A stretch of 62,521 bases of DNA, the filler included, from Bonamia ostreae (lineage: Eukaryota): the NCBI GenBank assembly GCA_040357525.1. It is 36 parts of 36 records of this genome, joined end to end, with 100 filler letters (N's around TTAATTAATTAA, not from the genome) between each part and the next. Parts side by side here need not be neighbours in the genome. Positions count along the whole stretch, not along the records: positions 1 to 1,650 come from JBDODL010001498.1; positions 1,751 to 3,400 come from JBDODL010001499.1; positions 3,501 to 5,150 come from JBDODL010001500.1; positions 5,251 to 6,899 come from JBDODL010001501.1; positions 7,000 to 8,648 come from JBDODL010001502.1; positions 8,749 to 10,397 come from JBDODL010001503.1; positions 10,498 to 12,146 come from JBDODL010001504.1; positions 12,247 to 13,895 come from JBDODL010001505.1; 28 more parts are not named here. One strand, 5' to 3'. The notes under the pieces are model-generated. The model worked only from the letters and a program-made list of their open reading frames with translations. It did not search any database and was not told the DNA's origin. Positions 1-62,521 of the stretch are shown here, piece by piece. Numbering within the stretch: the stretch's first letter is position 1; the number at the start of each line of letters is the position of its first letter. A program made the position numbers and the translations under genes.

Positions 1-64
1 AGTTGTTACCAACTTTACGATATTTATCAGAACATAAAACAATGTTCATCACCAATAAAAATAG

Positions 65-322
65 TCCGATTTGTTCGAACAGAAAATCAACAAAGTCCCA
101 TTATCCGTCATGTTCGACGATTACACGGGACCCGAAAAAGATTTTAAAAGCGCAACGGATTTTGTGAAAAAAAAGTTCATTGAATTGAACAACGCGAAAG
201 GAAAAGAAATATACACTCACGTGACTTGCGCCACGAACAATAGCAACATTAAACATGTGATGGCCGCTGTCACGGATGTTTTTATAAAGAAGAAATTGGC
301 GAAAGGTGGATTGCTCTATTGA
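65..322 (+). CDS. Heterotrimeric G-protein alpha subunit, last exon (5' partial)
   Basis: After acceptor ATAG (61-64): SDLFEQKI...IYTHVTCATNNSNIKHVMAAVTDVFIKKKLAKGGLLY*. This matches the post-NKxD region, the G5 TCAT box and the C-terminal helix of G-alpha. Confidence 0.93.
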   Translation, partial: SDLFEQKINKVPLSVMFDDYTGPEKDFKSATDFVKKKFIELNNAKGKEIYTHVTCATNNSNIKHVMAAVTDVFIKKKLAKGGLLY

Positions 323-995
323 CCTTCACTGTAAAAATAGTTTGCTTCACCTTTTTTTCGATTTGTAAAAAAAATCGTTCGATGTAATAAAACCGCTTTT
401 TGGTGTTCGACTTCGATATCAGCGGCGTTCGTTGTTAAAGAGTTTAAGGCATGCCTGTCAACTTCTTGTCAACCATTATAAAAATGTAGCTTTAGTTATT
501 TTCGGCAATTGTAGTTAGATAAAGTGTTTAATGTTGTTTAATCGATAATTAAATGGAGATCAGTGTAATAAATGGAGTGATTAACATTTTTATTTTTGGG
601 TTCGCTCAAATAGTCAAAAATGCAACTTTAAGTTATTTTTAATTCACATTTCCACCGATTTTTCGTTTTTATAGATGTTAAATTATTTTTCGACTGGATT
701 TAATTTTACTGTTTTAAAATTTTTAAAATTTGTGTTAAAATTAAAACTCTTCTTTAAAAAATTGTTCCGTTAACGTGCTATTTTGCGTAATAATAACATT
801 TAATCGAAATTTTAGTGGAAAGAGATCACTTCCGATTTTGTTAATAATAAAAAATGGACTGATTTTAATATTTGCTTTTTCTTCGTTTGATCAAATAGTT
901 TTAATGGTATTATAGACGATTTTTGTTATTCAAAAACGCGAAAAATTTTTATTAAAAACAAAATTTACGATTTTTGCAAAAATTAAAAATTCCGT

Positions 996-1650
996 TTAAT
1001 AAGAATGAATGCTTTTCCATTCGATGATTTTTTCCGATATCCAAGGATTCTCGATATTGTCCGCGGTACTTTCAACCATTTCAAACCATTTTTGTTCCCG
1101 ATTCTCTTTTTCGTAATAAAACTTTGCTTCTTCTAACAACTTTTTTTAATGAGAAAAATAATTTGAAAAATTGTCTGTAAAAACTTTAAAAAATTCGCTC
1201 AAATTTTCTTCGGTCAATTTTTTTAGTTTCTTTTTGATCAATAAATTCATTGTCTCCACAATTTCATTTGCCAACTTGTTTCCAACTTTTGGATTTTCTT
1301 TGGCCCCCATCTCCAAAAACTTTTTCACCTGATCATTCTCAAGACCTCTCAATATCGCCACCGTTAAATTAAACTTCATCCCCCAATTCCAGAAATCCTC
1401 GTTATTTAGAAAACTGTCAAATCTGAACAAATTTCTAAGCAGTAAAATCGCCTCCTCGGGCTCTAAGATTGAGCACTGTTTTCTTAAAAAATCGCATATA
1501 AGTTCAATATCTGCTTCTTCTTGAAGAAGGAGACTGAAAATTTCTGTTGTTTTCTTCAGAGAGACTTTTTCTTCTTTTTGAACAGAAAAGGATGTGGAGA
1601 TTTGTCGAAGTAGGTTTGATCGGCGATGGCTCCATTCATCTCCGTTTTCG
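996..1650 (-). CDS. Hypothetical alpha-helical protein, 5' partial, with 45-nt intron 1140-1184
   Basis: Open frame from the contig edge to ...LSEFFK. GTTTTTAC...AAAAAAAG intron, then LLEEAKFYYEKENREQKWF...WKSIHSY* (TAA 996-998). Confidence 0.7.
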
Positions 1651-1750
1651 NNNNNNNNNNNNNNNNNNNNNNNNNNNNNNNNNNNNNNNNNNNNTTAATT
1701 AATTAANNNNNNNNNNNNNNNNNNNNNNNNNNNNNNNNNNNNNNNNNNNN
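1651..1750. other. Artificial contig-joining linker (N44-TTAATTAATTAA-N44); first of 35 linkers
   Basis: The same 100-nt pattern recurs about every 1.74 kb. The 12-mer gives stops in all six frames, and contig lengths decrease from 1650 to about 1630. Confidence 0.99.
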
Positions 1751-1972
1751 GGTAATTGTATTTACTAGTGTCTATTTTTCATTGATTTTATTATTTTTTT
1801 GTTTGATAATTTTTTTTTATTTTAATTTTTATTTTTTAATTTTTTTTTAAATTAATTTTTTTTTTTTAGATTTTAAATTTTTTTATGGTCATTTGTTGTA
1901 TATTTATGAGTTGTAAATTTTTAATTATTTGGCATTTTAATTTTACATTACATTTTTAATTTGAATTTTAAT

Positions 1973-3247: not shown

Positions 3248-3950
3248 CTTTATTTTTATTTATTCATATTTTTCTATTTCTATAAAATTGCGATTAAATT
3301 TGAAAATTTTAGAAGCTGACTGGAAAATGTAAATTAGAAAATTACTGGAATTTGAAAGGAATCTCGTTCTGAAATGGGTTTGGAAAAGCCGTAGCGAGCA
3401 NNNNNNNNNNNNNNNNNNNNNNNNNNNNNNNNNNNNNNNNNNNNTTAATTAATTAANNNNNNNNNNNNNNNNNNNNNNNNNNNNNNNNNNNNNNNNNNNN
3501 AGCTTCTTAATAATATTTTTACTATTGATAAAAAATTTTTAATAATATTCCTTGAGTGCCAAAATTTAGCTCAAGATCCGAGACAAGAATCTTGACAAAA
3601 TTTATTGGATGCAGAGTTCGTTAGGCCCTTCGAGTCCTGAGATTTTTAAATAAAACTAAAGAAGTACTTAGAGAAATATTTAACAGTATATGCTCGGAAG
3701 AGGGCATTACGCACTCCAGCAAAGAACATCTTGTCACGGCTACTAACAAAATATTTAGCACATCATCAGGAACATCGATAAATATAAAAGAACGTATATT
3801 GTCTAAACTACTCGAGGAAAAGATTCAGCATAAATTTAGAATGGAATAACTCTTCTTTAAGCAAAAAACAAACATTTTCTGATCAACCATTTAGAATCAA
3901 ATTAAAAAATTATAGCTCCATCTGCAAATTAAAAAATATGTAAAATGTAT

Positions 3951-12312: not shown

Positions 12313-13735
12313 AATTCGCGCAGCCACCAGATGCGACATCGCTAAAGACTCAGGCCTCACAAAAGCCAAATAAGGCTCTTATCTTTGCATCCATTTCATT
12401 CGCGGGGAATGTTGTATGGTTTCTCAACCTAAAATAAAAAGGGTTTCGAATGCCGTTACTTCCACCATTTACCCACACAACAAGAAATCGAACACATTCC
12501 TGTCACAAAAGATGTTTTCGGACGAGATAGACACAGGTTTGGTCAACAACTTTTAGCACTGACAAAGAAGACATGTCCGGCGTTGGAAATTTCAACAAAG
12601 AAAACAAAACTTTGTTTATCGGAAGAGTTCCCGGAAAAGCGACGGACATTAATGTTTTTCTAAATTTTTGCTAATTTTGGGAAAAAAATTTTGCTAATTT
12701 TCTTATTTGAAGAATCTTTTGTATCATCATTTTTCGGAATGGGGAGATATCGAGGAAAGTTTTCAAAATACAAAATTTTTAAAATTAGTCAACATTCCAT
12801 CCGACAAATCGATGGCATTTATAAGATTCCAATTCCGATCAAGCGCTGAAATAGCGAAGGTTGCAATGGATTGTCAGAGCCTCGGGTTTGGGGACATCCT
12901 GCAAATTCGCTGGGCACACGAGGACCCTAATCCAAAGCGGCGGCGTGCAGCCGAGGAAGCTGAAAAAACGCAAGCGAAAAAGAAGCTGGTGCAAAGAGGT
13001 TAAAACATTTTTTCACAAAATGAGTAAAATATTATTAAAATTTGGTTAATTGAAAAAAATGTCGAAATATTAAAAATAGCGACGAAAATATTACAGAAAA
13101 CCGATTTGGCTAATTTGGAACAAAATTTGATAACAAAAAATGAAAATGAAATTTTTCTGCGAGAAAAAATAGCTCAAGAAAATGAGGAGTTTGAAAAGAA
13201 AATTGGTGAATATCAAAACTGGTTGAACATTGTCGACAACGACGATTTCAAAGACAATGTCCAAAATAACAATAATTTGGAAAATGACAACAATGATTTA
13301 ATTGAACCTCCTGGAATTAGTAATAAAACAAATTTTGAAAATATAACAAACAAAAATTACGAAAAAATGAGCTTAAGTGATATGGAAACAAATTTTGAAA
13401 ATACAACAAACAAAAATTACGAAAAAATGAGCTTAAGTGATATGGACAAAATTAGCAATAAAACAAATTTTGAAAATACAACAGATAAAAATTACGAAAA
13501 AACGAGCTTAAGTGATATGGACCAACATATTTTAAATCAAAAAGATGGACAAAATTTGACATTAAAGCCTCCGCCAGGAATAAAAAGAAAGGGCAAAAAA
13601 ATTGTAAAGAAAAATGGTTTTCCTAATAAAAATTTAGAAATAAGATTTTCTACAAAACCACTCAAATTGAAAAACCCCAAAAAGTACAAATTTCCGGATA
13701 TCAACAAACAAATTGATAATGCCCTTAAAAAGTAA
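12313..13735 (+). CDS. CWC2: Pre-mRNA splicing factor Cwc2 (CCCH/Torus + RRM), 5' partial; introns 12419-12441, 12537-12556, 12654-12712, 12759-12788, 12999-13079; in-frame TAA at 12371-12373
   Basis: Spliced translation RCDIAKDSGLTKAK*GSYLCIHFIRGECCMGFECRYFHHLPT..KDVFGRDRHSTDKEDMSGVGNFNKENKTLFIGRV..HFSEWGDIEEINI..AFIRF..SAEIAKVAM..QSL..LQIRWAHEDPNP matches Cwc2 motifs. Confidence 0.88.
13319..13522 (+). repeat. Coding tandem repeat, about 3 copies of (N/E)(K)TNFEN.T.KNYEK.SLSDM, in the Cwc2 C-terminal tail
   Basis: Near-identical DNA units ACAAATTTTGAAAATA..ACAA..AAAAATTACGAAAAAA.GAGCTTAAGTGATATGGA. Confidence 0.9.
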
Positions 13736-14692: not shown

Positions 14693-15124
14693 ATGTCCGA
14701 CAAAAAGCAAAACCGAAATGGGTTTGCCAGACATCTCCATTTGCGCACGTACAATTTTGCGGCGAAGACTGGAATAAAAAGACTGAGCAGTTTCCAAGTT
14801 TTGGCTCGCAGCGGAGGCCACAAAGTGCTCCGAAGCCAAATCTCGTTGTTGGAAGGAAAACGTCTTTGGGAAGACTTTTCCATCACGCGCCTCAAAAACG
14901 CGAAGAAAAAGGCGTCAAATCTCGCGAAAGAACTGTCTTCCCTCCGAAATCTCGATTCGCCCCGCTCTTTCACGAAAATCGTGTCCGTTTTGGGCACAAA
15001 CAAAAATAAATATTTGGTAGTGCGCAAACACGACAAAAGAAACCGCTTCGTCAAAAGTTGGGAATCGGTTGAAAAAAGGGAAATAGAAAAACCGCTCAAA
15101 ATTTACGAAAAAATTGTTTTTTGA
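14693..15124 (+). CDS. Hypothetical basic protein (may continue in a downstream exon near 15301-15643)
   Basis: 143-aa ATG-initiated ORF with higher GC than its flanks. No family recognised. Confidence 0.55.
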   Translation: MSDKKQNRNGFARHLHLRTYNFAAKTGIKRLSSFQVLARSGGHKVLRSQISLLEGKRLWEDFSITRLKNAKKKASNLAKELSSLRNLDSPRSFTKIVSVLGTNKNKYLVVRKHDKRNRFVKSWESVEKREIEKPLKIYEKIVF

Positions 15125-15743
15125 AGTTCAAAATTTAAAGTTTGAATCGATTGAAAAAGAAAATTTTGAAAGTTATTGTTATTTTTGCAGAAAAGAGAGC
15201 TGTTTTTTAGACCAATTTTAACCAAAATTTAGCCAATTTTGACAGTTTTGCGAATAAAGAAAATTTTTATTTTCGCGGGAGAAATTTTGTTCCGATAAAT
15301 TTGAAAAAATTCTACAAAATTCTGACGCCCGAAAAATCCAATTTGGGCAAAAATTTTAGTTCCAAATTTGCGTTCCAAAACTTTTTAAACAAAAACAATT
15401 TGAAGCTTTTGAAGAAAAAAGTGCTTCTCAAAATTAAGAAAAAAGAATCGATAAAATTGGCAAAAATTTTTGTTTTGACAAAAAAGCAAACGAAAAGCGC
15501 TTTTAAAAACAGAAAGTTCTTAAATCGTCTTATAAAAACGGAAAATGACAGAAAGTGTGAAGTTTTAAAGAATTTGAACAATGACATTTTTGTGATCGGA
15601 TTGTCGTTGAGCAAGCCGTTAGTGATGGAATGTCTGATTTTCANNNNNNNNNNNNNNNNNNNNNNNNNNNNNNNNNNNNNNNNNNNNTTAATTAATTAAN
15701 NNNNNNNNNNNNNNNNNNNNNNNNNNNNNNNNNNNNNNNNNNN

Positions 15744-17390
15744 AAATCGAATATTTAAATCCAAAAAAAGCTATTGGATTTGACAACATACACCAATATA
15801 TGTTTATTCATAGTAAAAAAATATCATGTGTATATCTTTTAAACTTGTTTAATATGATAATTAAACATGGTTTGCCAAAGAAACTAAATACAGCAACATT
15901 AATTCCAATACCAAAGATTAACAAAGATTGTATAAAAATATGTAACATAAGACCCATTTCGTTACTTAGTGTAACAAGCAAAATATTTGAAAAAATAATG
16001 TTAAATAAACTTAAAAAGTTTCTTAATGATAATAAGATAATAAAAGACATACAACATGGTTTTACTGAAAATAAAAACACAAATGATAATATAATTAATT
16101 TATACGAAAAAATGTTAAGTACTTACAATAAAAAATCTAATATGTGTGTTGTCTTTTTAGATATTTCTAAGGCATACGACACTGTTGATAGAAATATTAT
16201 GATTAAAATTATTAAAAAAATTGGAATTAAAAACGAATTATTAACATTTTTAAATTACTTTTTGAGTTCAAGATTTTGTTATACAAAATATAACAATAAT
16301 AATAGTAAAATAATGAGTTTTAAATATGGACTTCCACAAGGAAGTCCATTATCGCCGACTCTATTCAATTTATATATCAACTGTATTTTTGAGGAAAGCT
16401 ACAAAAAAGTAAAATTTAGAGCTTTCGCGGATGATATTTATCTGTATAGCATAGATGAAAATGAAGAAAGACTAATATGTTATATTAACAATGCGATTAA
16501 AAAAGTAACATCTATTACAAACACATTAAATTTAAAATTTTCATTGGAAAAATCAAAAGCGATGTTTATATCCAATAAAATCAAAAATCAAACGTACAAA
16601 GTTAAATTATACGACAAGAACATTGAATATGTTAATGTAATTAAATATCTCGGAATCACATTTGACAAAAGATTAAAATTTGATGAACACTTAAATAATA
16701 CTTTAAAAAAAGCTAGGAAACGTTTATATTTTTTAAAGTATTTGACAAACAGCATCAAGGGTGCTAAGAAAATGTACTTAATTAATGCTTTTAAATCATT
16801 TGTCAGGTCATTATTGGATTACTCTTATCCAATTTTCATTTCACTAACAAAATCAAGACTAAAAAGATTAGAATCTTTTCAGCACGTATCGCTTTGTTAT
16901 TTACTATCTATTAACAAAAGATCAAGTTATCTATGTCTTTTAAACTCAATCAACATGTTAACCTTAAAGAATAGGAATTTTCAACTTTTTTATAATTACA
17001 GCACTAAAAGGAATTTTCTAAATAAAAATTCTACAAATCGATCTTTTTATAATAAAAAATCTATTTGGATAAATTTTAATATCATCAAAAATTCAATAAA
17101 ATGTTTGGATTTTAATAAAAGTATTAAAAAAAGTCTTCTACTATTCCAATTAAAAAAATTAGAAGAGACTAAAAATAATTGTAATGATAATTCAAAATTC
17201 TCAATTGATATTTTTAACTATGCTTATAAAAATAAAATTAATATTTTTAAAAATATTAAAAAAATGTCTAATGTGAAATTTATCTATATTTTGAAAATTT
17301 TGTGCGGATGTCTACAACTGAACTATTTCTTTTTTAAAATGAAACTAAAAAAATCTGAATTTTGCAATTATTGTACGAAAAAAGAAACAA
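15744..17390 (+). mobile_element. Non-LTR retrotransposon (LINE) ORF2 reverse transcriptase fragment, uninterrupted across the whole contig
   Basis: Motifs KAIGFDNI, IPIPK, IRPISLLSVTSKIFEK, QHGF, FLDISKAYDTV, GLPQGSPLSPTLFNLY, FADD, KYLGITFD and a C-terminal CNYCTKKET knuckle. Confidence 0.96.
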
Positions 17391-19338: not shown

Positions 19339-20801
19339 TTAGAACTCGAAATTGGGATCTATACTGAGTGCCCATGGAAATTTGTCCAGCAAAGCTTTTT
19401 GAAATATCTTTTCGATTGGCATTTCGTTTCTTTTGCACCACGCGACGCTTATTCTCGGGTCCATATAATTTATTTTCGACGTTCCCAGCGCTATTTCTTT
19501 CGTCGATTTCTAAAGTTTATAGTTTATTGACATTATTTTGTAATATTAAAATTTTAAATTATCAAATTAAAAATAATTAAATCACCTTAAGCTTAATATT
19601 AAATCCCTGTTTTTCAATTCTGACTTTTAATCTTTTGATCATATTCTTTACGACCATCGGATTTCTTTTTCTTTTCGCGTTTTTCTTTGTTGTTTCAGTT
19701 TCTTTTGTCGTATCTGAGACGCTTTTGTATTCTTTTTTTAGCTCTTTAAGTTTAATTTTCATTTCGTTTAGCCGATCCAATTGTTTCTGCAAACTAGCGT
19801 TAAATGTCTTTGATACCGTTTTCTGGTGGTTGCACAATATTGCAACTTGTCGATTTGCTCTATAGTTGAAAAACAAAAAACTCGTCATAAAAGTACTTTT
19901 TCTGATCGATTGTTTTTCTTTTATCCACTTTTTCTTTTGCTAATTCCTTCAATTTATTTTGCGATATAAAATTAATGTAAAATTATTGTTTTCTTAAATC
20001 AATATCTGTAAATAAAAGTAAAAATCGATCCGTTAATAAAAATTTTGTCTTTAAAAATTGATCTTTTAATAAAATTTTTTGTCCATTAAAAATTGATCCT
20101 TTTAAAATAGATAAAATCATTTTAAAAACATTCTGTAAAGTTATTGAAGCGTTAAAAGTACGGAACACTTTAGCTGTTAAATTTTCTGATAGTTCTGAAA
20201 GATAAGCATTAACAATTCTGGTCTATTTAAAAATATTATTAAAATTTAGATTTACATTTAGTTTGTCGAATATAATATCGGACGATATTTTGTTTTTGCA
20301 AAAATATTTCAGATTTTTGTAAACGACCCGATCGATTTTGGTTTTGTTCTGATACCTTATTGAATCCTTTCCTAAAAAATCAAGTTTGATCGTATTGTCA
20401 TCTAAAAATTTGATATGTTCCAATCGAAGTGTACATACTCCAACTGTATCCGCTGTTATAGAAGTATCTTTTTCGTTTCTTTATATGGAAACAATATAAA
20501 ATTTTGTTTCATGTATTTTTTCCAATAAAATAATAACAAATCATAAAAGCTGAAATTTAAATATAAAATTAAAATTAGTAAGAAATTTAAATATTTAAAC
20601 TTTGTTGAATAAATAAAACCCGACTCGAATGGCCAATTTGTCAATTATCCATACTGCAGTAGCTCTTTGTCTGTTACTTTGATCATCTGAATTCAAATCT
20701 TTCATATATTCTTTCCGAACAAAATCAATTTTGTTTTTTAGTGCTCGAGCAGATTCGTACTTTTTCATATCGTTTTGTCCTTTTAATGTCGAACTCGCAT
20801 G
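19339..20801 (-). CDS. TOP1: DNA topoisomerase IB, 3' part; introns 20479-20619, 20223-20255, 19947-20129, 19860-19881, 19510-19585
   Basis: Spliced translation contains [79 protein letters not shown] and the catalytic [19 protein letters not shown]. Confidence 0.97.
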
Positions 20802-20978
20802 CTAAAAAAGGTTAATTTTATATTGTTTTTTATCGCAATAAATTTTGAACTGTTTTTTATCGCAATAAATTTTGAACTNNNNNNNNNNNNNNNNNNNNNN
20901 NNNNNNNNNNNNNNNNNNNNNNTTAATTAATTAANNNNNNNNNNNNNNNNNNNNNNNNNNNNNNNNNNNNNNNNNNNN

Positions 20979-24549: not shown

Positions 24550-26104
24550 ATTAACGTGGGAGATTGTCCACCAATTTTGGAATGTTTTGTTGAACTGGAA
24601 GGAAAAAAAGAGGAATTGGAAGAAACAAGAGAATTTTTGGACAAATTTAGAGTAAATGTTGAAGGGCACAGCAACATTAGCAGAGAGATGTTCTATGGTC
24701 AATCGAAAACTTTTAAACGTTTAAATTTGCTAAATTGCGAAACTATTTAAAAAATTGAATGATGAAAAATTAAAAAAAGAAAAGAAAAATGTTTTGATAT
24801 TTGAGCCGAAAAAGCGGTTTGAAAAAGTCGGAAAATATACTTTTACAGTCGAATATTTTGAAAACAGAAATCAACTTAAAAGAAGAATTGAATCAAATGC
24901 GCTGGAATTTACTGTTGTTCCAGGTTTTATGTTCATTAAATTTGCTTTTTTGATTTTATTCGATTTTTTTTCGGACAATTTTAATAAAATTTGTTTTTTT
25001 TTAATTTTTCGGTCAATTTTGTTTAATAAAATTAATTTTTTCGATATGTTTTCGGTCAATTTTGTTTAATAAAATTAATTTTTTCGATTTGTTTTAGGTC
25101 AATTTTTTTTATTTGATAAAATATAAATTAAAGGAACTCCAAAGAAACTTAAAATTTTGGAAAAGGAAAAATTTGAAAATTTGTCTGCGTCGAATTTTGG
25201 TAATTGCAGATTGATCGCAAAAGAAATCGATTTGGAAATTTGCGGTTTTTAATATTAATATTTAAGATAACTTTAATACTCCGATCGAAGGTTTTTCGCA
25301 AAAATATGATTTGGCTAAATTTTAACAATTTTTTGTAAATTGGATTTTTGAATAAAAATCATCAAAACTTTTAAGATTTGAACGAGTTTCCAGATATTCT
25401 AATCAAAGTTTCATCGGAAAACGGACAAAACAGAAATTTACCTGTTTAAATTGACAAAATTAAAAAAAAAGAAATTGTCTTATTCCCAAAAAAACTCAAA
25501 AATAAAAAATTTGTCAGTTTTGGAAAAGAGCGGTGATTTTGAAGGAGATGTTTTTCTGGAATTTTTAGTTCATCCAAACTGGTCCCGAAAAAATAACAGT
25601 TCGATTTTAAATCGATTGTCGTCTGATAAAATCAAATTTTATTTTTCAAACGGTTTTGTTAAATTTTTGTCAATTTTGTATTAAAAATTTTGTTTTTTAT
25701 CGATTTTTTTTATCGATTTTTGTACTAAAACTTTAGATAAATTTTGTTTTTTACAATTTTTTTACTGTTTTGCATTTACAAAATTTTGTTTTGCTAATTT
25801 TTGACGGCCATTAACATTTAAAATAAAGATTCGAAAACAGTATCAAAACAAAAAACATTAGAATCAAAATACGCTGAAGTCAAAAGATCAATCGATTACA
25901 TTTTAAAAAAGCTAAAACCGTTCGAATCAGCAAACAACAAAAACATTGCACAATTTGATGTTGATGGAATAGAAAGCTATATATCTTTCCCGAGAAACGA
26001 AGCGGAATCGATATTGAGAAATCAAATAAAAAAAATATCAAATTTTATCGAAGAAAATAAAAGACAATTGAAACTGCCATTTTTTGATGATCCGTTGCGG
26101 AGTG
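24463..26104 (+). CDS. SMCHD1-like protein, internal fragment (last Ig-like domains and coiled coil before the hinge); introns approx. 24719-24779, 24924-25133, 25245-25266, 25291-25375, 25444-25471, 25653-25828
   Basis: The spliced frame stays open: KVGKYTFTV..IESNALEFTVVPGTPKKL..SASN..RLIAKEIDLEICDNFNT..ILIKVSSENGQNRNLP..IKNLSVLEKSG..IKFYFSNDSK..RQLKLP. It is collinear with motifs recalled from vertebrate SMCHD1 (KVGTYCI, VEVLPNQPVKL, RTLVRDLHLSITDDYDN, LPFMFYNDVK, RSCTLP). Confidence 0.55.
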
Positions 26105-26209
26105 NNNNNNNNNNNNNNNNNNNNNNNNNNNNNNNNNNNNNNNNNNNNTTAATTAATTAANNNNNNNNNNNNNNNNNNNNNNNNNNNNNNNNNNNNNNNN
26201 NNNNAAAAA

Positions 26210-26797
26210 TTATTTAAAACGAATGAGGAAACAGACGAACAGCATAAAGGACGTCATGGAGAACAGAATAACGTACAAGAAGTAAGGCTTATATTCCTTC
26301 GAGTAGAAGTTTATTTTCATCGTCACCGGGTGAAGAAAGGGCAAGAACGCTGGATATAGCATTAGCAAGCAAAAGGCGAGAAAGAACATGACCAGGTTCC
26401 ATCTTTGGCAGAACATCAAAATTCGATCGAACCTCCCCGTTTTCTGTTCAAGTCGTTTCTGTTTCCTGTGATTGATCCAGATTCCAAAAAGTCTTTGTTT
26501 TGAGGATTTTGCGATTAGATCAAGAAACCGGAAAATGTAAACGAGGTTGATCAGAGTGATGAACACTGTTTTTATGAGATGCTTGAAGAACAGACTAACT
26601 TCTTTTTCGAAGAATGGGGTATTCAGAACCACCATTGCCCATCCGAACAACGAAGTGGTGGCCATGTTCAGACAAAGGAGTGCTCGGTTTCTAAACTTGA
26701 GCGGAAATTTGTTTCTCCTCAGCGCTACAAAAACAACGGACGTGCACATCACGTAGAAGTGCACGTAAGAGTATGTAAACAGCAAAATCGGTTCCAT
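26210..26797 (-). CDS. Multi-pass membrane protein, possibly the N-terminal TM region of a 7TM-RGS-type protein; probably 3' partial
   Basis: About five hydrophobic segments. The RRNKFPLKFRN motif after TM1 resembles protist 7TM-RGS proteins, but no RGS box is visible in the contig. Confidence 0.6.
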   Translation of the reverse strand: MEPILLFTYSYVHFYVMCTSVVFVALRRNKFPLKFRNRALLCLNMATTSLFGWAMVVLNTPFFEKEVSLFFKHLIKTVFITLINLVYIFRFLDLIAKSSKQRLFGIWINHRKQKRLEQKTGRFDRILMFCQRWNLVMFFLAFCLLMLYPAFLPFLHPVTMKINFYSKEYKPYFLYVILFSMTSFMLFVCFLIRFK

Positions 26798-26842
26798 CGA
26801 GATTATTTTTTTAATTTACAAAACAAAAATCTCCATAAAAAT

Positions 26843-27704
26843 TTATATTTTGAAAAACATCAGTGTTACTAATTGCGGAATAGTGAAAAGAAGAGTCGCC
26901 AGTGCCATGTACCAACCGACCCCGAAATGCTCTATTTCGATGGATTTGAAGATGTACCTCAATTCAGTTCGCCTATTGAGCGGCATATACACCAACACGC
27001 CATACAACACGACTATCAACAAATTCAGGAGGAATCCGGTGTAGACGCTTACTTGCACGGCAAGCTTCTCCCTTCCTTTCAGTCTTTTCCGCGTGATGAG
27101 AACGTGCAGGAATATCGATATCGCCAGAATGGACAGCAATCCCGAAGCAGTGCAAAGCGAAAGCACGCCGAAAGCGTATCTTATGGCCTTTGGTGGACAG
27201 TTAAGTTTTCAGTGCGAAAAATCGCAATCAAAAAATTTGCAGAATATTCGCTTTAGTTATAAATGACCTCGTTGGGGCACCTGGCGTCACAGAGCGCCGG
27301 CATGATATAATAAGTGTTGATGCAAGTGTTCTCCTTGTAGATTTTGCAATCGGCGAAATGGAAAGAAAACAAGCCGAGTCTAAAGTCGACGACTGCGCTG
27401 TCCCTGATCGCTTTGCCGTTCGCCCATGTCTGACTGGCCGTAGACGCGAGATTGAAGAACAACCAAAAGATGCAGAGCACCAGCATGGCCACCATTTTTT
27501 GGCGTTGCCGTCTTTAAGTGTCTGCACAAAACTTTGTGCGCTCGGAGAGTCTAGTGATGGCGCCCATGACTCGTGTGTACCCTCTTTTAAACAAACTCAT
27601 TCGCCGCTGTTTTTTGACCGCCTTTTCGTGCGGCACTTCATTTGCGGCGAGTTGCATTTGGGAATTAAGTGCTACCTGGCTCTGAAAATTAGAAACATTA
27701 CCAT
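26843..27704 (-). CDS. Claudin/PMP22-superfamily tetraspan membrane protein; introns 27682-27701, 27512-27532, 27188-27267
   Basis: Spliced: M|SQVALNSQ..TM1-STASQTW..FRLGLFS..C..C..|AIRYAFGVLSLC (TM2)..TM3..HFGVGWYMALA (TM4). The W-GL-C-C loop and FGxxxY pattern fit the claudin superfamily. Confidence 0.65.
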
Positions 27705-44582: not shown

Positions 44583-45206
44583 ATGGTTGCAGTTAATGAA
44601 TCTGTTAAAGGAGAACGCTACGCTTTTTCCGCGGACATCAACAATCTGCTCGGGTAAACATTCGAAACCTCAAGCTTGATAATCAACACGTTCTATTCGA
44701 ACAACGATGTCTTCCTCAGGGAACTCATCTCCAATTCGTCTGACGCAATAGACAAGATAAAGTTCAAGTCGCTTACAGACTCTTCGGTGCTCGGCGATGA
44801 AACCGAATTTAAAATCCAAATCGTCCCTAACAAGGAAGCCAAAACGCTCACTATCCGTGACAACGGAATTGGCATGACGAAAGACGAAATGGTCAAAAAT
44901 CTAGGAACAATCGCCACGTCCGGAACTAAAGCTTTCATGGACGTTTTTAAAATTTATTTTAATAATTGCTCAAAAAATATTTTCCAAAAAGACTAAACAA
45001 CTTATTTTCTTACTAAAATTTAACACAAAAAACTTATTTTCAAATTAAAATATAACACAAAAAACTTATTTTCTTACTAAAATTTAACACAAAAAACTTA
45101 TTTTCTTATTAAAAATTATCACAAAATATGTTAATTTGAATAAAAACAAAAAAGGCTATTCAAGCGGGCGCCGATATTCAAATGATCGGCCAATTCGGTG
45201 TCGGAT
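44583..45206 (+). CDS. HSP90: Cytosolic Hsp90, 5' part; introns 44654-44674 (21 nt) and 44943-45154 (212 nt)
   Basis: [87 protein letters not shown]. Confidence 0.98.
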
Positions 45207-49142: not shown

Positions 49143-50010
49143 ATGTTCAAATTATTGAAGAAAAAAGATTTCAATCTAATTTGTGTCGAACTAGAAAAAG
49201 AATCGAATGGCAAAAGTTTTGCAAAACAAGAAATTGAAAACAAGAAAAACGAAAATTCTGTAATCAAAAAGAAAACCGAATTTGTAAAAAATCGTCCTTC
49301 GAAAAGGAAAAAAAGAAAGAAAAAAATTCTTCCCAAAAGTGACAAAAAACTGAGGAAAAAATCGAGAACTTTGGGATTAAGAAACAGAAAAATTAAAAGA
49401 TGTTCATTGTCGTCTTCGTCGGAACGATCTGAACCGAAAACGGAGAAAATCGAAAAAATGACATTGAAAAAGAGAAAGAAAAATTTCAAAAAATTCAAAA
49501 ATGACGAAAAGAAAAAAAAATCGAAAATCGACAAAAAGACGAAAAAAAAAATCGAAAAAAGGAAAGTCGAAAACTTGTCAAAATCTTATAAACGCCAAAA
49601 ATATTGATAAAAAGAAGACGAACAGAAACAAAAAAGATCAAAATGAGAAGGAAAAAACAGACGGCGACAAACAGAAAGAAAAACAAAAAAATGTTAAAGA
49701 AGATAACGACAAAATTTTAGATGTAATCAAAAAAGAAGAAGACAGAATAAAGGAGGAAGCAAAAATTTTCGAAGAAGAAAAATTAAAAAATAGAGTCGAA
49801 GCCTTAAAAAAGATGGATCTGTTAGAAGACGATTATTTGGAAAGAGTCGGAAGAGAAAAGAGTGAATTCGACGATGAATTGGCGACTGAAATTTGGCTTT
49901 TGCGTCAAGAACTGCAAGAGCAGATTTTCTTAAATTCTCAAATCAAAAAAATGTTATTAGTTACTATCGACGAAGACAAATTCTCAAAAGTTTTTTATAA
50001 AAATGGCTAA
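49143..50010 (+). CDS. Lys/Glu-rich low-complexity protein; exon structure unresolved (overlapping ORFs 49143-49607 and 49501-50010)
   Basis: Purine-rich + strand with K/E/S tracts and a helical C-terminal segment (DELATEIWLLRQELQEQIFLN). Confidence 0.5.
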
Positions 50011-50821: not shown

Positions 50822-51837
50822 GCAAAGAAGATCGGGAAATGTTTCGGATGCGGAATTCAACTTCAAACGAGGTAATCGACTTTTTTTTATAAAAACAGCG
50901 ATGTTAACCAAAAAGGTTACATTTCGCTCAAACAAAAATCCGTTCCACTCGATTACGTCAAAAAACGCGAAAAAATGGAAAAAATGGAAATTTTGCATTT
51001 GGACGAAAAATCGAATTTAAAAACTGACCAAAATGACTTTAGCAAAAGTTTAACAAAAAATCTGGCCAAACGAAAATTTAAACAAATCTGCGTTCGTTGC
51101 CATCAACTTAGATTTCAGGGAAAAGTTAGAAGTGGTAAAAATATGGATCTTTCTGATTTTTGGAATAGTTTGGAAAAAATTATGAGAGAATGTTTTTCAT
51201 TTTACCAATTTTACAAAAAAAAACGATTTTTGAAATTTACTAAAATTTTGTTAAAAATCGATTTTGACCAAAATTAGTAAAAAATTTTGTTAAAATTTGA
51301 CAAAAAATTACTAAAAAATATTTTTAAAAATTGCTAAAAATTGTAATTAGATCCTCGTTCAGCAATTTTATTGATAATCGACATATTTGATTTTAACGGA
51401 ACGATTTTGAAAAATTTGAAGAAAATTGTGAATAAAGATCATCCCGTTGTAATCGCTATCAACAAAATCGATTTGATTCCGGTTAATTGCAGTAAATCTG
51501 TTTTAAATAAATGGGCTCTGTTATCTGTCAAAAATCTTGGATTGGTAAAATTTTTGGCTAAATTTTAAAAATCCAAATAATTTGAAATTTAAATATTTTT
51601 TTAATTTTGGACGAATTGATAATCATTTCAAAATAAAATTTTGATAATAAGTGGATTCACGAAGTGATGTTAATAAGCGGGAAAGACAATGTGAATTTGG
51701 GAAGACTTCAAAATTCACTTGTGGATCTATCGAAAAAGAACATCAAAGAAATTTTTGTTGTTGGTACAACAAATGTTGGTAAAAGTACGTTAATTAATTC
51801 AATGCGAATGAAAAAAATGATTACTACTGTCGGTGGA
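50822..51837 (+). CDS. NOA1: NOA1/YqeH-family circularly permuted GTPase, partial; introns 50872-50898, 51192-51350, 51545-51651
   Basis: Zinc ligands CFGCGIQLQTSDVNQKGYI and ICVRCHQL, then IIDIFDFNGT, G4 INKIDL, G5 LISG and G1 VVGTTNVGKSTLINS, in the permuted G4-G5-G1 order. Confidence 0.9.
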
Positions 51838-51848
51838 GTTTTTAATAA

Positions 51849-52137
51849 AAAATTGCAATTAAAATTATTGCAAAAACAAATTTTAGTACACAAATTGCAA
51901 ATAAAATTATTGCAAAAACAAAATTTAGTAAAAAATTGCAAATATAAAATTACCACAAAAACAAAATTTAGTACAAAAATTGCAAATAAAATTATCACAA
52001 AAACAAAATTTAGTACAAAAATTGCAAATAAAATTATCACAAAAAGAAAATTTAGTACAAAATTGCAAATAAAATTATCACTAAAACAAAATTTAGTAAA
52101 AAATTGCAAATATAAAATTACCACAAAAACAAAATTT
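51849..52137 (+). repeat. About 39-bp degenerate minisatellite, likely intronic in the NOA1-like gene
   Basis: AAATTGCAAATAAAATTATCACAAAAACAAAATTTAGTAC-like units follow a GTTTTT donor at 51838 and run to the contig end. Confidence 0.85.
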
Positions 52138-52380: not shown

Positions 52381-52982
52381 ATGGCCGGAAAACCGAAAAA
52401 TGTCGTATTCGCAGAAGACGGAGATGTCCTAATAAAGAAAACGAAAGAACAAAAGTCCGAAAGCTTAAGAATTGACGGCAATAAATTTTTTGCGAAGGGC
52501 GACTTCGAATCTGCGACGAAACTTTATTCGGACTCGATTTTGGAAAAGGAAAACCACCTTTCGTATTGCAACAGATCGCTTTGCCACATCAAATTAAAAA
52601 AGTTCAAATTTTCGATATCAGTTTCAAAGCAGCTTTAATCGACGCCGAAAAAAGCTTGAAAATATCTCCCAATTTTGTGAAAGCAGTTTTTAGAAAGGGA
52701 ATTGCGAAGAAGTACTTGAATGACCTGGACGGAGCGTTGCAAAGTTTTTCAAAGGCGAAAAAACTTTTAAGCGACAAAAAAGATATTTCGACGAAAAGTT
52801 TTCTGAGCTACGTTGAAACGGAAATAACTTATCTCGAAACCAAAAAAGAGCACCAAAAATCCCAAAAAAGCTTGAAAACGACGACGAAACCCGTTTTCGA
52901 AGAATATTTTGGCGACAAAACAAATTCCGCCGACAAACCTTACAAGTACGTTCTTGACAAGGACATCGAGGACATCTCTTGA
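52381..52982 (+). CDS. TPR-repeat co-chaperone-like protein; 20-nt intron 52602-52621
   Basis: GNKFFAKGDFESATKLYSDSI..YCNRSLCHIKLKN|FKAALIDAEKSLKISPNFVKAVFRKG gives three TPRs with carboxylate-clamp-like residues. Confidence 0.88.
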
Positions 52983-53140: not shown

Positions 53141-53714
53141 ATGGCGAGGAAAAATCGCCCCAAACGCAAAAACAGAACGAAAGTGGACACTTATTGCGAA
53201 ATCGACAGCCTCAAAAAATCTTCCGCGACCAGCAAAGAATTGATCGTGGAACAACTGACAACCGCCATTAACCAAAAAAGCGCAAACGAGATTTCGGAGT
53301 TCGAAGCTAAAAAAGAGCTTTGTCTAAAATATCAACGGCGATTTTATGGCTTCGATTTGAGCGTTTTTGACTAATTAAAAGTTTCTTCCTGAAGATTATC
53401 GGCATCTCCAATTCTTCTCTCCCGCCATTTTCGTGTCGAAAGAGGCCATTAAAACAGACGAGAAAACGATTAAATATATTACGGAAAAAGCCCAAAACAG
53501 GACTTTGCAAAAAAATTTGTTGTTGTTTAATGGCGAAGTCTGTTTTAATTTTTTGAATTTTCAAAACAGATTTGATAACGACTTTGACGGAACGTTCTTT
53601 TTATGCGAAGAATGTCCTAAAAACAGCTTTAAATTCCGATTTGGTGATCGTTTTGTTGCCGTTTATGATATTGATCGCAATGTTTTATTGTAAATTGTTC
53701 AAGTTTTGCAAATG
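53141..53714 (+). CDS. Hypothetical protein; 19-nt intron 53363-53381; 3' structure uncertain (possible C-terminal TM via intron 53542-53569)
   Basis: ORFs 53141-53374 and 53433-53693 join in frame via GTTTTTGACTAATTAAAAG. Confidence 0.55.
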
Positions 53715-56627: not shown

Positions 56628-56705
56628 AAAATTAGATTTTTAATTTATTTTTGGCCGCTTTTTAAGATAAAAAAGATTTTTCAAACAAAAAACTGGTTAT
56701 AATAT

Positions 56706-57773: not shown

Positions 57774-57844
57774 TAATTTTCTTATGTTAAAGCTTTAATT
57801 ATTTTAAAATATTAAGGCTTTTTCATATAAGTAAATTGCCATAA

Positions 57845-58981
57845 ATGATCATCTTGCCAGCTACGAACACTATATTGAGACAAACTGTTTTCAAAAGACT
57901 GTCGCAGAACAAGAAAGAAGCTTGCGAATTCACGTTTAGCGATTTCGACAGCGTCTCTTTCCGGGTGAGCACTCCTTTGGAAGACAAAGAGAGCCTCTTT
58001 ATAGAGATGAACGTTCCGTTTTGGGAAGACATTAAAGATGTGGGCGCACAGGAAGGACTGGAGAAGTTTTATGGCGACTTCCTCGAGTCGGTCGAAAATC
58101 AGACGGTGCGCTTGAAGGTCGCCATCGACGACTTTAAGGACGAGGAAAAAAGCGAGGAATTTAGCGAATTGGTGTCCAACATGAAAAACAACATTATTTG
58201 CGAAGTGCTCAAAATTCGCTTCCGCACTGTAAAAGCGCAAGCGCCGCCCAAAGCGATCGCCAAAATCGCTTTGCGCGAAGACACAACAATTTTTGTGCAG
58301 TCTTTGAACGACAGAATTTTCGTTCATTTTGCATTGACCTTCGAAGGAAAAACTGACAAAATCATCGGGAATCTTTTCATGTCGGTTTTTGATTAAGCTT
58401 TTCTTGTTTATGTAGATCTGATAATAAATATGTTCGTCGATTATTAAAAGTTTAATGTTTATTGTTTCGTATGTTTCTTTGTTATGATTTTGAGCATTAA
58501 ATATTGTAACGACTATATGGATTGTTGTTAATATCTTAAGCTAGCTTAAAGCTAGAAAATGTAATTGAACTTTGAATTGTAAAATAGTCTTTAAATGATC
58601 CTTCCAAAAGGAGTTTGTGGAAACAAAAAGAAAACTTGGCGCGGCCCCTTTATGCGCTTTCAGTTCCAGCCCTCCTTTAAAGCTCAAATCGGAAATAGAC
58701 GAAAATAAATATAAAGACCGCACATTTTTGACATTGAGTTTTATTTTGAAAATTAAGCGCTTCTTCCAAAACATGTCGAAACAGAGGAAAAGATTACATC
58801 GGCTGCAGAATCAATGCTCGGGTTTAGGCAGTTCATAAGCTACCATATAAAATCTTCAAAATCGTATTTCCATCAAAGAATGCGAGCCCAAGTCGAATTG
58901 ATGCTGAAAATTCTGAACAGAGCCAAAGTTGAAAAAGAGAAAAAGTCGAAAACTTATTCGGGAAAAACATTCAAAAGATGA
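57845..58981 (+). CDS. ARPC2: Arp2/3 complex subunit 2 (p34-Arc), complete; introns 58385-58610 (226 nt) and 58738-58757 (20 nt)
   Basis: MIILPATNTIL..SDFDSVSF..DRIFVHF..DKIIGNLFMS|EFVE..AP..SPPL..TLLPKH..FRQFISYHIKSSKSYFHQRMRA..LKILNRAK..KTYSGKTFKR*. Confidence 0.96.
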
Positions 58982-59562
58982 TATTGTAAATCGCTGCAGC
59001 TTTTTTATTTGTGTGGCACATTTTGTAGAAAATTTTGGAAAATTTTGCTCGGAAAACGTTTNNNNNNNNNNNNNNNNNNNNNNNNNNNNNNNNNNNNNNN
59101 NNNNNTTAATTAATTAANNNNNNNNNNNNNNNNNNNNNNNNNNNNNNNNNNNNNNNNNNNNTAAATTTTAACTCTAAAATAGTTAAATATTGAAATATTT
59201 GATACTTTTAAACGCTTCAAAAGTTACGTTTAACAACGCCAAATATTATTAGCATCGCGATATATATCATATTATATATTATCATTGTACGTGATTCATT
59301 TAAAAAAAATATCTTCATTCAATGCTTTAGAAACGCCACCAGATACAATCCGAGAAATTTAAAGACCGCATGTCCGATCTAACAAGCTTATATGGCTCCA
59401 TTTTGTTTGTTACGATTACGTGTCGTTCAGATAGCACGTGAGAAGAAACAGCTTATTTCCTTTCAAACCAGGTAGATATCTTGACATACGGAGAGAAAAT
59501 GCTTACGGTAAAGCTCCGTTTAATTTTCCTTTACGCGATTCTGTATATCCCGTTCGTCGCCT

Positions 59563-59813
59563 ATGCGAACAATTCTAAGAATTGTGAAAAGTGTACCTTT
59601 TTTCGCTTTATCTGCTACCCTACTCTGGTTGATAATAGGTGAGTGGAAAACTTTCTTGTTCTGTGGGTATAAATATTTTTAAATAATTGTGAATTAATCA
59701 TGACACCACTTTATTTAAAGTGACTATCATGTGGTACGTAAATACAGTAGCTGCGAGAGGACGTACCACGTCGGATGCAGTTTTTGGCGTTGGGGAAGAT
59801 GTACAAGACACAA
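59563..59813 (+). CDS. First two exons (59563-59638, 59721-59813) of an animal-like type II membrane or secreted protein
   Basis: MRTILRIVKSVPFFALSATLLWLII|VTIMWYVNTVAARGRTTSD.. Both exons end in canonical GTGAGT donors with compatible phase. Confidence 0.5.
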
Positions 59814-60945
59814 GTGAGTTTTTTGTTGTTTTTGTTTTTTTACATTTCTCAGTATTAATCAAAGAGTGTCTCTCGGAGACTGTCCTAAGCAAACTTATAC
59901 ATTATATAACTCTTCTCAGTCACATAGTCTTTTCTCTGGTACTGCAACAAAGGAAAATAATAAGCCACACAATCTGTAGAAGATCTTTGTGTATAAAGAA
60001 ATTAACACAAAATAGGAAAGTAAGAAAGGAAAAATATGTGAATAATGATAAATGTATATACAAGGGTATTCCACCAGAAAATACGTTTTAAATTACACAT
60101 GCTAAAATCTATCATAGATATCTAACCCCAGAAGAAAATCCGATATTGACAAAAATTAGCTGCATAGTTTATTCATACTTGGTAAATGCCATCTTTGCCA
60201 TTCTGTATAAATAATTAGTCGCATTTGTTTTGCCAGTTTATGGTTAATTATATTTTTTCATTATACAGTATGAGGTGTAGTTATGCCATGTAGACTTTTA
60301 TGTGCTTTTTGATTTTTTTTTTTATAACATAAGGACAGTTGTAAAGTATGTTATTTTTCTATTACACTGTTCAGTGACCTCAATCGTTGGCATTTTCTTT
60401 TCATAAATGCTCTTAAACAACATAACTTGAATTACTCTTATCATTTAAAAGGAGAGTAGACTTGGGTAGAAAAACCTTATCATAGTTTGTAATTGAGTTG
60501 TTAAATGTCCGATATGATGGTATGATGCTTTATTGCATACGTACTAATTAGAATTCATTATTTGGGTATTGTATAATTGGGTATTGTTCCTTAGCACATG
60601 GTTTATTTCATTTACATAGTGTTGATTATAGAAAGTTTAGAACACTCATTTTGGACACGAGGAAGAAAAAAAAAAAAAACCCACTGATCTGTTCCTTGAG
60701 CATTCTCTTTTGGTGTTCTTTGCAAAAAAGATGAATGAATATTCCGTGCAATGTATAAAGGGTTTTAGCGGTCTTATTATCATTGGTCCTGNNNNNNNNN
60801 NNNNNNNNNNNNNNNNNNNNNNNNNNNNNNNNNNNTTAATTAATTAANNNNNNNNNNNNNNNNNNNNNNNNNNNNNNNNNNNNNNNNNNNNTAAACTGTA
60901 TAGTAACAGCTACAAATGACTTGTTTTTTTTAAATTAACCTTTAG

Positions 60946-62488
60946 ATGCAAAGAAAATCAACACAGCAAAAGACCTTTATCTTCGAGCAGAACGCCTTGA
61001 AGATATTTTCGAAAAACTAGACGAAGCAATTGCAGAGGACAAAGTCAAATTGGCCTACAAAACAATGAGGAAACTTGAAAAAATGACGAAAGAAAGCGTT
61101 AATCCTTACGAATTCGCAACATCTGAAGTGATTTGTTTTCTCGTCGACACCTTGCTCGCGTTTTCGAACGAGAAGGTTTCCGATTTGACGAGAAAAATGA
61201 TAACTTATATTGATCAAAACACAAAATTTCGCACTGATTCTATTCTTGACGCCATTTACAACAAATTGCCAGAGCATCTTATAAACTTGAATCATGCGCA
61301 CAGTGTGTTCGAAATGCTTCGATGTCTCATCCGGTCTCAACATAACATAAATTCTTACAAGTTTTATTTACTGTCTTGTTGTTACATTCACTTATCTGTA
61401 TTTTATGTTTTGAACTTATTGTTTATTTGCATTTATTTGGGCGATTTTTGTTCGATACACTTACACACTGTTACATACACTATATAAATAACATTTAAAA
61501 AGTATCAGGGAAATTTATAAAGATCGTGCAAAAGACTTTGATAGACAATGTGGTCATTACAATAATAAAGTCTTGAAAAAGATTGTAAACATTGCATTGG
61601 ATTATAAAAACGACTACAGTCTCCAAAACGCAGTCGTCGGAATATTCTTAAGACTGGAATTGAATGGAATGGATAATGCCAAAATAATGTTCAAACATGT
61701 TTTATAAAACAACGATGACAGATGAGAAAATTGATGAAAAAGGGAAATTGTGACAAAGTGCGTTTTTTCGCCCTAAAAACGGTAGCTCTCTACGCCTACA
61801 AAAGCATTTGGTGTCGAGACAGCGAAGATAGGATATTTGAAATGTTGCTTGAGATGATTGCGAAAGAGCCTGAAAAGTTTGGAACAGCTTGTTTTGAGTT
61901 GATGATGGATTTGGTGTATGTAGAAGTGGAAATTTATTACAAAGTGCTTTATAAAATGTTGGGTGCAGCTTGGGAGCACATTATCAATTCAAAGACTGAA
62001 GATACAAAATTAAGAACGGCATGTCAAAATTTTCTTTTGTTGGTGCACGAAAAAGTCTTTTGTCAAAATATTTAGTTCTAATATTTGATTATTTTGTTTT
62101 TGCCAATTTTCAAAATATTTTTTGACAAAAAAATAAAATTAAGAGCGAAGAGTTGGATTGTGGAGACATTTTTAAAGTAGATGTTGGTGTCGAGACTAAA
62201 GAGACTTTGATTGAATGGCTAAAGAGACATAACAAAGTATTTAAGATAAAATATTTGAATGATGGCGTTCCAGAGGAAATCTATTCGATCAATATGATGT
62301 ATTTTGAAATCGAAAAGTCTATTTTAATTTTATTTGATGATACACGTACATATTCAATAATTCTAACGATTTCTATTTTAATCAAAAACAGAGAAAAGGT
62401 TTGTGATAAGAAAAAGCATTTTTTACTTCGATGTTATAGCGCTGTGAAGAAAATGTTTCGGGGAGTTTATAAGAAGCCCTGTAATTAG
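60946..62488 (+). CDS. Alpha-solenoid (HEAT/ARM-like) hypothetical protein, 5' partial; introns include 61361-61502 and 61699-61721 (23 nt)
   Basis: Exons join in frame (..SYN|IREIYK..MFKH|MRKLMK..). Amphipathic helical repeats such as DKVRFFALKTV. Confidence 0.6.
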
Positions 62489-62521
62489 AAATATTGTACC
62501 ATTACATTTTTTATATTTTTT

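Follow-up and report, generated by a model that had tools for sequence, protein, structure and literature searches.

Entamoeba, of which five species have been studied, begins its introns with GUUUGU(U) donors, and its U1 small nuclear RNA (snRNA) carries ACAAAC instead of the canonical ACUUAC (bioRxiv 10.1101/2022.06.08.495308). The same account describes a transformed donor consensus in a handful of lineages, all of them intron-poor, and, as far as that account goes, Entamoeba and Mastigamoeba are the only ones for which a corresponding change in an snRNA is on record (bioRxiv 10.1101/2022.06.08.495308). A different kind of departure is known from the mikrocytids Mikrocytos mackini and Paramikrocytos canceri, where the introns are all 16-17 nucleotides (nt) long and number 224 in the genome (PMC10245619), and from the ultra-short introns of myxobolid myxozoans and of Dicyema japonicum, in which the donor is reduced to 'GTa' (PMC13644364). 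Here we describe the introns of Bonamia ostreae, a haplosporidian and an economically important pathogen of oysters, in a window of 62,521 bases, meaning the whole stretch of DNA that was analyzed, which consists of separate scaffolds placed end to end and is no contiguous region.

We consider it very probable that these are ordinary GT-AG spliceosomal introns with a consensus specific to the Bonamia lineage, and not a product of base composition. The donor consensus would, in all likelihood, be G-U-U-U-U followed by U or A, instead of the GUAAGU of most eukaryotes. At the 3' end the consensus is, with good confidence, mildly U-rich at about -12 to -10, A-rich from -9 to -3 and terminated by AAG, with no other AG for at least 20 nt upstream and with no enrichment of pyrimidines. 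The signal is position-specific, goes beyond composition, and is present both in the short introns, of 19-33 nt, and in the long ones, of 45-226 nt. This splice consensus is apparently unreported, and its closest parallel is Entamoeba. We found no description of Bonamia splice-site motifs in the literature searched, a search outside which figures and supplements lay, and a term search of the text of the transcriptome paper (PMC9329632) returned 0 occurrences of 'intron' or 'splic'.

These statements rest on a census of 26 GT-AG introns from nine genes on eight scaffolds, in which every intron that could be established in a supported gene was taken and its ends were disregarded. Nineteen introns form tier 1, being fixed by an RNA contig, by an exact match to deposited proteins, or by profile, structure or tblastn alignments; the seven of tier 2 (19585-19510, 50872-50898, 51192-51350, 51545-51651, 52602-52621, 53363-53381 and 1184-1140) are fixed mainly by continuity of the reading frame, with partial domain support. 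All 26 have GT and AG borders, and their removal restores the frame or a conserved protein, as seen in one joint in an RNA contig, two deposited proteins matched exactly, and the continuity of profiles and alignments. The median length is 52 nt, the shortest intron having 19 and the longest 226; ten introns measure 19-28 nt, twelve measure 19-33 nt, and the other fourteen measure 45-226 nt, so that the ultra-short class (below about 30 nt) covers just part of the set. The introns are 83% A+T, and their interiors consist of 44% T and 39% A.

GTTT opens 19 of the 26 introns, and GTTTT opens 15. In AT-rich introns such ends might be no more than an artefact of composition, GT-T and A-AG arising by chance and the fitting cases being picked afterwards. 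The composition of the interiors speaks for this explanation, as does the presence of GTT at 39% of the other GT sites; moreover, an earlier description of the window, here called the sequence-only reading, had listed only GTTT donors and had omitted all seven of the 26 donors that are not of this type. Nevertheless, we hold a composition artefact to be highly improbable. GTTT is found at 73% of donors, against 19% expected from interior composition (p=4.9e-9) and against 18% (1,035 of 5,760) of the other GT sites in the window (Fisher odds ratio 12.4, p=1.4e-9). The excess of T peaks at +3 (p=1.5e-4) and vanishes by +6, the counts falling from 21 through 19 and 17 to 13 of 26 over positions +3 to +6 (81, 73 and 65% at +3, +4 and +5, where the interiors have 44%), and the census included every intron found in the supported genes, with any motif. 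Short introns (8/12) and long introns (11/14) both use GTTT. A G at +5 is normally among the most conserved intronic positions; in the census it occurs once in 26 donors, and a purine occupies +3 in five. On the exon side a weak AG|GT preference persists, with A at -2 in 15 and G at -1 in 13 of 26. Donors of U12-type introns follow a consensus of the ATCCTT type, and the extended ATCCTT donor was seen in none of the 26 census donors.

The acceptors end in AAG (17/26), TAG (7/26) or CAG (2/26). From -8 to -3, A fills 93 of 156 positions (60%, against 39% of interiors, p=1.8e-7), including -3 itself in 17 of 26 introns, and pyrimidines, at 59 of 156 (38%, against 52.6%, p=1.5e-4), are depleted; over the wider span from -16 to -3 they amount to 46%, against 52.6% of interiors, which does not constitute a polypyrimidine tract. 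The excess of A is restricted to -9 to -3 and is directly preceded by mildly T-rich positions at -12 to -10, again a pattern that composition would not produce. Thus the combination of GTTT donors and A-rich acceptors, which the sequence-only reading had put forward as the main pattern, stands above background at both ends (19/26 and 17/26). Its further claim that a polypyrimidine tract is absent agrees with the depletion at -8 to -3, but is best expressed as a tendency and not as a rule, since runs of 7-9 T lie within the last 20 nt of a few introns and a probable acceptor near 20803, outside the census, reads CCTTTTTTAG. In the 20 nt before the acceptors, 495 positions in all, there is no further AG, whereas the deeper parts of the introns have 22 in 1,401 positions. 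Position -8 is A in 19 of 26 introns, and words resembling TCAAC or CTAAT are visible in the short ones. Of 16 matches to TTGCTAAW in the window, five (12668, 12691, 24727, 25791 and 51331) fall, in sense orientation, within curated introns, and these account for less than 2% of the strand positions searched; this word may be a branch-site-like element or a shared repeat.

Compared with the systems described above, Bonamia resembles Entamoeba in replacing the usual purines at +3 and +4 by U, in its A/U-rich introns and in the poor fit of its donors to canonical U1. It differs in that Entamoeba has G at +5 (96.9-98.5% GUUUGN), whereas Bonamia has U there in 17 of 26 donors; in that the consensus is near-universal in Entamoeba (about 88-90%), whereas in Bonamia it reaches 73% and GTAA is still used; and in that Entamoeba is intron-poor, whereas supported Bonamia genes contain 5-6 introns per 1.6-kb scaffold. 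Furthermore, the modified U1 (ACAAAC) is demonstrated in Entamoeba; a counterpart in Bonamia would be putative. With the mikrocytids, members of the same class (Ascetosporea, Rhizaria), Bonamia shares very short introns of conserved sequence (PMC10245619); mikrocytid introns, however, are 16-17 nt long and few, and those of Bonamia are 19-226 nt long and many per gene, a comparison of size and number (PMC10245619). Myxobolids and Dicyema japonicum likewise have introns of less than 30 nt with A upstream of AG and a polypyrimidine tract that is missing or very short (PMC13644364), but these are animals with a 'GTa' donor, whereas Bonamia is a rhizarian protist with an extended GTTTT and with the same ends on its long introns. 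Canonical U2-type introns, finally, share with the Bonamia set the GT and AG borders, the restoration of proteins on removal, the AG-free zone and the weak exonic AG|GT preference, and differ from it in having purines at +3 and +4, G at +5, and pyrimidines where Bonamia has A at -3 and a depletion of pyrimidines from -8 to -3.

A consensus of this kind could also be created by curation on the part of analyst and annotator, the introns being in reality unspliced or spliced elsewhere. A dynamic-programming gene finder blind to motifs found no more than 6 of the 14 benchmark introns, and for this reason was kept out of the census; enumeration of pairs of open reading frames (ORFs) yields many alternative GT..AG pairs; the donor at 51192 has in-phase rivals at 51132 and 51135; and a GTTT at 61699, cited as a donor by the sequence-only reading, is absent from the sole NCBI-sourced model found there. 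The chance that the gene models are at fault is nonetheless very small in our judgement, because for tier-1 junctions the residue is pinned down by alignments made independently, to Pfam profiles, to PDB chains and to the Hsp90 of a haplosporidian, or by exact translation to deposited proteins, and tier 1 by itself gives GTTT in 16 of 19 introns (tier 2, 3 of 7; the set without the gene known from annotation only, 13 of 20). The other strings cited as GTTT donors also held up well. All 15 are present, 12 on the plus strand and three (19881, 20129 and 20619, topoisomerase I donors) on the minus strand, and 14 are donors of census introns, 12 in tier 1 (12419, 12537, 12654, 12759, 19881, 20129, 20619, 24924, 25245, 44943, 58385 and 58738) and two in tier 2 (51192 and 53363). 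The A-rich acceptors cited at 12441, 25471, 45154 and 58610 belong to tier 1, and those at 1140 (on the minus strand) and 53381 to tier 2.

The gene on scaffold 8 encodes a splicing factor of the Cwc2/Cwf2 (RBM22) type, and contributes five plus-strand introns, all of tier 1. Removal of 12419..12441 (23 nt, GTTTCT..AAAAAG) shifts the frame and joins a CCCH finger, the Pfam Torus match (84-109) beginning at residue 1 of the next exon. The flanks of 12537..12556 (20 nt, GTTTGG..TTTTAG) match contiguous residues of a Cwc2 chain, 84-116 weakly (E 0.77) and 117-145 more strongly (E 8e-5). At 12654..12712 (59 nt, GTTTTT..TTGAAG) the frame changes from the RNP2 exon to the next RRM exon, and the flank matches to chain 9l5r_0 end at 185 and resume at 191. 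The intron at 12759..12788 (30 nt, GTTTTC..AATTAG) lies in frame and is free of stop codons; in the alignment to the same spliceosome chain a gap of 10 residues spans exactly these 30 nt. At 12999..13079 (81 nt, GTTAAA..AAATAG) a contig of RNA sequencing (RNA-seq) reads from run X6 joins both flanks and skips the 81 nt with their GT..AG ends. RNA reads were placed on this scaffold only. The contigs of run X5 on it are unspliced, and run X3, which contains 46% of the scaffold's sampled words, covers just two short repeat pieces at high depth and no transcript; that no RNA covers the gene's four GTTT introns is uninformative in either direction. The two pieces, 13322-13367 and 13398-13483, lie in the repetitive C-terminal part of the gene and have a word depth of 274-482 in run X3, from which the rest of the scaffold is absent, and this suggests a repeat common to something abundant in that run. 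Upstream of the CCCH finger, 12354-12374 is a possible 21-nt GC-AG intron at a place where there is no GT; its excision would drop an in-frame stop and preserve the frame.

Five introns interrupt the topoisomerase I gene on the minus strand, the first four of them in tier 1. Pfam Topoisom_I positions 1-58 and 60-132 flank 20479..20619 (141 nt, GTTTTA..ATAAAG), and positions 60-132 and 133-163 flank 20223..20255 (33 nt, GTAAAT..AAATAG), which has an in-frame stop inside. The acceptor of 19947..20129 (183 nt, GTTTTT..TTGAAG) is the sole AG downstream of an in-frame stop, and the next exon, of 21 amino acids (aa), fills the profile gap 164-184. A frame shift is resolved by removal of 19860..19881 (22 nt, GTTTTT..CTATAG), the exon downstream of which starts at profile position 185 and covers 185-227. 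The fifth, 19510..19585 (76 nt, GTGATT..CTTTAG), is of tier 2: Topoisom_I ends at 227 upstream of it, Topo_C_assoc 16-70 lies in the next exon, and the frame is continuous.

The six introns of MHBO_003117 (plus strand, tier 1) were obtained by exact spliced mapping of the NCBI Bonamia ostreae protein P0123 (MES1921585.1) onto its scaffold of 1,642 bp, which required only GT..AG borders. They are 24719..24779 (61 nt, GTTTAA..AAAAAAG), 24924..25133 (210 nt, GTTTTA..ATTAAAG, holding tandem repeats), 25245..25266 (22 nt, GTTTTT..ATTTAAG), 25291..25375 (85 nt, GTTTTT..CTTTTAAG), 25444..25471 (28 nt, GTTTAA..AAAAAAAAG) and 25653..25828 (176 nt, GTTTTG..AAATAAAG). The donor at 25245 and the acceptor at 25471, both cited by the sequence-only reading, are thus not partners: the former pairs with 25266 and the latter with the donor at 25444.

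Hsp90, whose best match is that of Haplosporidium littoralis (75% identity), has two plus-strand introns of tier 1. The first, 44654..44674 (21 nt, GTAAAC..CTCAAG), corresponds to a gap of 7 residues in the tblastn alignment with the H. littoralis protein (P0002), and at the second, 44943..45154 (212 nt, GTTTTT..AAAAAAG, itself containing a tandem repeat of about 32 nt), the tblastn matches run up to query residue 113 and continue from 114. In ARPC2 (plus strand, tier 1) the spliced model, with 58385..58610 (226 nt, GTTTTT..CAAAAG) and 58738..58757 (20 nt, GTTTTA..ATTAAG) both removed, translates exactly to P0122 (MES1921598.1, variant 1, 296 aa), and exon 1 is 100% identical to the deposited 'Arp complex subunit, variant 2 [Bonamia ostreae]'. 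The 20-nt intron is retained in that variant 2 (P0001, 255 aa), in which the frame shifts and the conserved C-terminus is replaced. A dicyemid origin of the window, to which introns of about 20 nt and an RNA run labelled 'mollusc metagenome' had pointed, was rejected on account of the complete identity of ARPC2 exon 1 with a Bonamia ostreae protein.

The remaining introns are of tier 2. In a YqeH-type GTPase gene (plus strand) 50872..50898 (27 nt, GTAATC..AAACAG) is placed by frame continuity across an in-frame stop, and 51192..51350 (159 nt, GTTTTT..AATTAG) by frame continuity; for these two the sole argument from homology, which for 50872-50898 concerns a zinc-finger region, is a presumed resemblance to human and Bacillus proteins and not a tool alignment. 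A search of PDB with the first YqeH exon gave nothing significant. Upstream of 51545..51651 (107 nt, GTAAAA..ATAAG) the exon matches the YqeH chains 3h2y and 3ec1 to its last residue, and the P-loop is in the next exon. In 51838-52137, after the P-loop exon, a GTTTTT leads into repeats that continue to the scaffold end and resemble the intron 25653-25828 in the opposite orientation; this segment is probably the start of a further intron whose acceptor is off the scaffold. In a TPR-protein gene the removal of 52602..52621 (plus strand, 20 nt, GTTCAA..TATCAG) connects two long frames through a frame shift, with TPR_1 in the downstream exon. Two introns lie in unnamed genes. The first, 53363..53381 (plus strand, 19 nt, GTTTTT..TAAAAG), is, as read from the sequence, the sole in-phase GT..AG between the stop of a 90-aa frame and the start of a 104-aa frame, and is the shortest among the 15 frame-compatible pairs listed; the second, 1140..1184 (minus strand, 45 nt, GTTTTT..AAAAAAG), is, of the GT..AG pairs in frame, the shortest whose removal eliminates the stop separating a frame of 167 aa from one of 49 aa. 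Several long introns are largely made of internal tandem repeats with units of about 30-40 nt, at 44995-45126 in Hsp90, 24950-25111 in MHBO_003117, 20019-20105 in topoisomerase I and 51236-51342 in the YqeH-type gene.

In the non-conventional introns of euglenids the ends base-pair and so juxtapose the splice sites. The sequence-only reading had proposed, as one of two alternatives, a similar arrangement for Bonamia, in which the U-rich start of an intron would pair with its A-rich terminus and bring the splice sites together, and the U runs of the consensus are indeed complementary to its A runs. Its example, Hsp90 intron 2, is accurate in that the first 7 nt have a perfect complement at 45141-45147, the best duplex of the set at -5.0 kcal/mol; complements of at least 7 nt, however, are also reached by 11% of non-cognate pairs of ends. 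Over the set, the two ends of one intron have no pairing advantage over ends taken from different introns. For the first 10 against the last 10 nt the cognate mean is -0.18 kcal/mol and the non-cognate mean -0.40, with 85% of permutations equal or better; the corresponding fraction of permutations is 0.13 with windows of 8x16 nt, 0.43 with 12x25 nt and 0.64 with 8x12 nt, and mean duplex energies lie between -0.2 and -2.4 kcal/mol over the window sizes. Ten of the 12 introns of up to 33 nt have a minimum free energy of 0, with a mean z of +0.28 relative to shuffles, and, by eye, the 3' ends that accompany GTAA-type donors bear no matching change. The complementarity of the ends is trivial, a matter of U runs facing A runs, the helices are too weak to stand alone, and we regard terminal pairing as a most unlikely basis for splicing in these introns.

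Returning to spliceosomal introns with a lineage-specific consensus, we compared the donors with canonical U1 and U6 ends, which may not be those of this organism, using pairing schemes after bioRxiv 10.1101/2022.06.08.495308. Census donors form on average 3.0 of 6 pairs with U1 ACUUAC, where GUAAGU forms 6 of 6, and 3.1 of 5 pairs with U6 ACAGA (+2 to +6), where GUAAGU forms 3 of 5. The poor fit claimed earlier for both snRNAs therefore applies to U1 but was overstated for U6. With a hypothetical U1 end of AAAAAC the donors would form 4.7 of 6 pairs on average. The other alternative of the sequence-only reading, divergence of the snRNAs or of U2AF, is still plausible in view of the position-specific signal and of the precedent in Entamoeba. 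Recognition of the 5' splice site by the spliceosome may have shifted, either through a co-evolved U1 5' end as in Entamoeba, or through a smaller role of U1 and a larger one of U6 and proteins. A branch adenosine about 6-10 nt from the 3' splice site would lie within the A-rich segment, and the first AG past the branch would be used, leaving neither room nor need for a polypyrimidine tract; a near branch site and use of the first AG would account for the AG-free zone as well as for the lack of a tract. More specifically, it is conceivable, though we think it rather doubtful, that Bonamia ostreae, and perhaps haplosporidians generally, possess an A-rich U1 pairing region matching GUUUUU or define the 5' site largely independently of U1. 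Neither an snRNA nor a tRNA was found in the window by Rfam (gathering scores or E<=5) and ARAGORN. According to PMC11069148, splicing genes were lost at the ancestor of paramyxids and mikrocytids and not at haplosporidians. A Cwc2-type splicing factor is encoded within the window itself.

Several points weigh against a lineage-specific consensus read by an altered spliceosome. The sample is small, with its 26 introns, nine genes and eight scaffolds. Seven introns rest mainly on frame continuity, and among these GTTT is found in three. The single junction seen in RNA, 12999-13079, has a GTTA donor and not GTTT, and six introns come from one gene model, produced by an annotation pipeline with predictors that themselves learn what splice motifs look like. 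The seven donors that are not GTTT comprise four GTAA, one GTGA, one GTTA and one GTTC, and consequently the canonical type is still accepted. The branch position is read from the A enrichment at -8 (19/26) and from loose motifs, and nothing in the data shows a change in U1, U6, U2AF or SF1. In addition, the genome paper terms the introns of Bonamia ostreae canonical (PMC11069148).

A GUUUUU donor in an intron-dense parasite would provide a new and independent test of the co-evolution of splice signals and snRNAs. If reading of the 5' site has changed, this would be the first case outside Amoebozoa and in intron-dense genes, and the link of transformed splice signals to intron loss would be broken; it could also represent a stage toward the 16-17-nt introns and the spliceosome without an identified U1 of mikrocytids. 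The Bonamia consensus is in any event a reference point for those extreme introns.

By default, common RNA-seq aligners set a minimum intron length above 19-20 nt. Use of the real consensus could improve the Bonamia gene models and proteomes. Among the deposited models, at least P0001, described above, and P0124 appear to retain or miss tiny introns. P0124, of 113 aa, with a single exon and an internal Met start, is the sole deposited model found at 60939-62485 (scaffold 36), where four consecutive plus-strand frames are joinable by the candidate GT..AG introns 61361-61502, 61699-61721 and 62055-62143, so that P0124 may represent just part of a longer gene. Gene annotation of Bonamia ostreae was made with funannotate and published RNA-seq (PMC11069148). 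The mean of 2 introns per mRNA given in Table 1 of the genome paper (PMC11069148) is lower than the count of 5-6 per 1.6 kb in the supported genes.

The shortest-pair rule of the ORF-pair enumeration gave three further candidate introns outside the census, 2918-2820 on the minus strand (GTAAAA), and 15116-15210 (GTTTTT, with a T-rich acceptor) and 49566-49614 (GTCGAA) on the plus strand. Positions 1-64 hold an A-rich acceptor, AATAAAAATAG, at 64, after which comes the last exon of a G-alpha gene, the 5' part of which is off the scaffold.

The genome paper reports an assembly of 12.24 Mb in 9,705 scaffolds with an N50 of 1,417 bp, 33.3% GC and 5,253 gene models (PMC11069148). The 36 pieces of the window, in descending order of length from 1,650 to 1,630 bp, are small scaffolds of this fragmented draft, three of them assigned to it by exact protein matches, and are joined by linkers of the form N44-TTAATTAATTAA-N44; four of the scaffolds have internal N10 gaps, and the GC content per piece is 22-42%. 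Scaffold 16 (26205-27844), at 42% GC, differs in composition from most of the others and has long frames on both strands without family matches. Scaffold 10 (15746-17389), at 22% GC, consists over its full length of a single ORF of 548 codons, which contains a reverse-transcriptase domain (RVT_1, E=4e-35), and is probably part of a retroelement.

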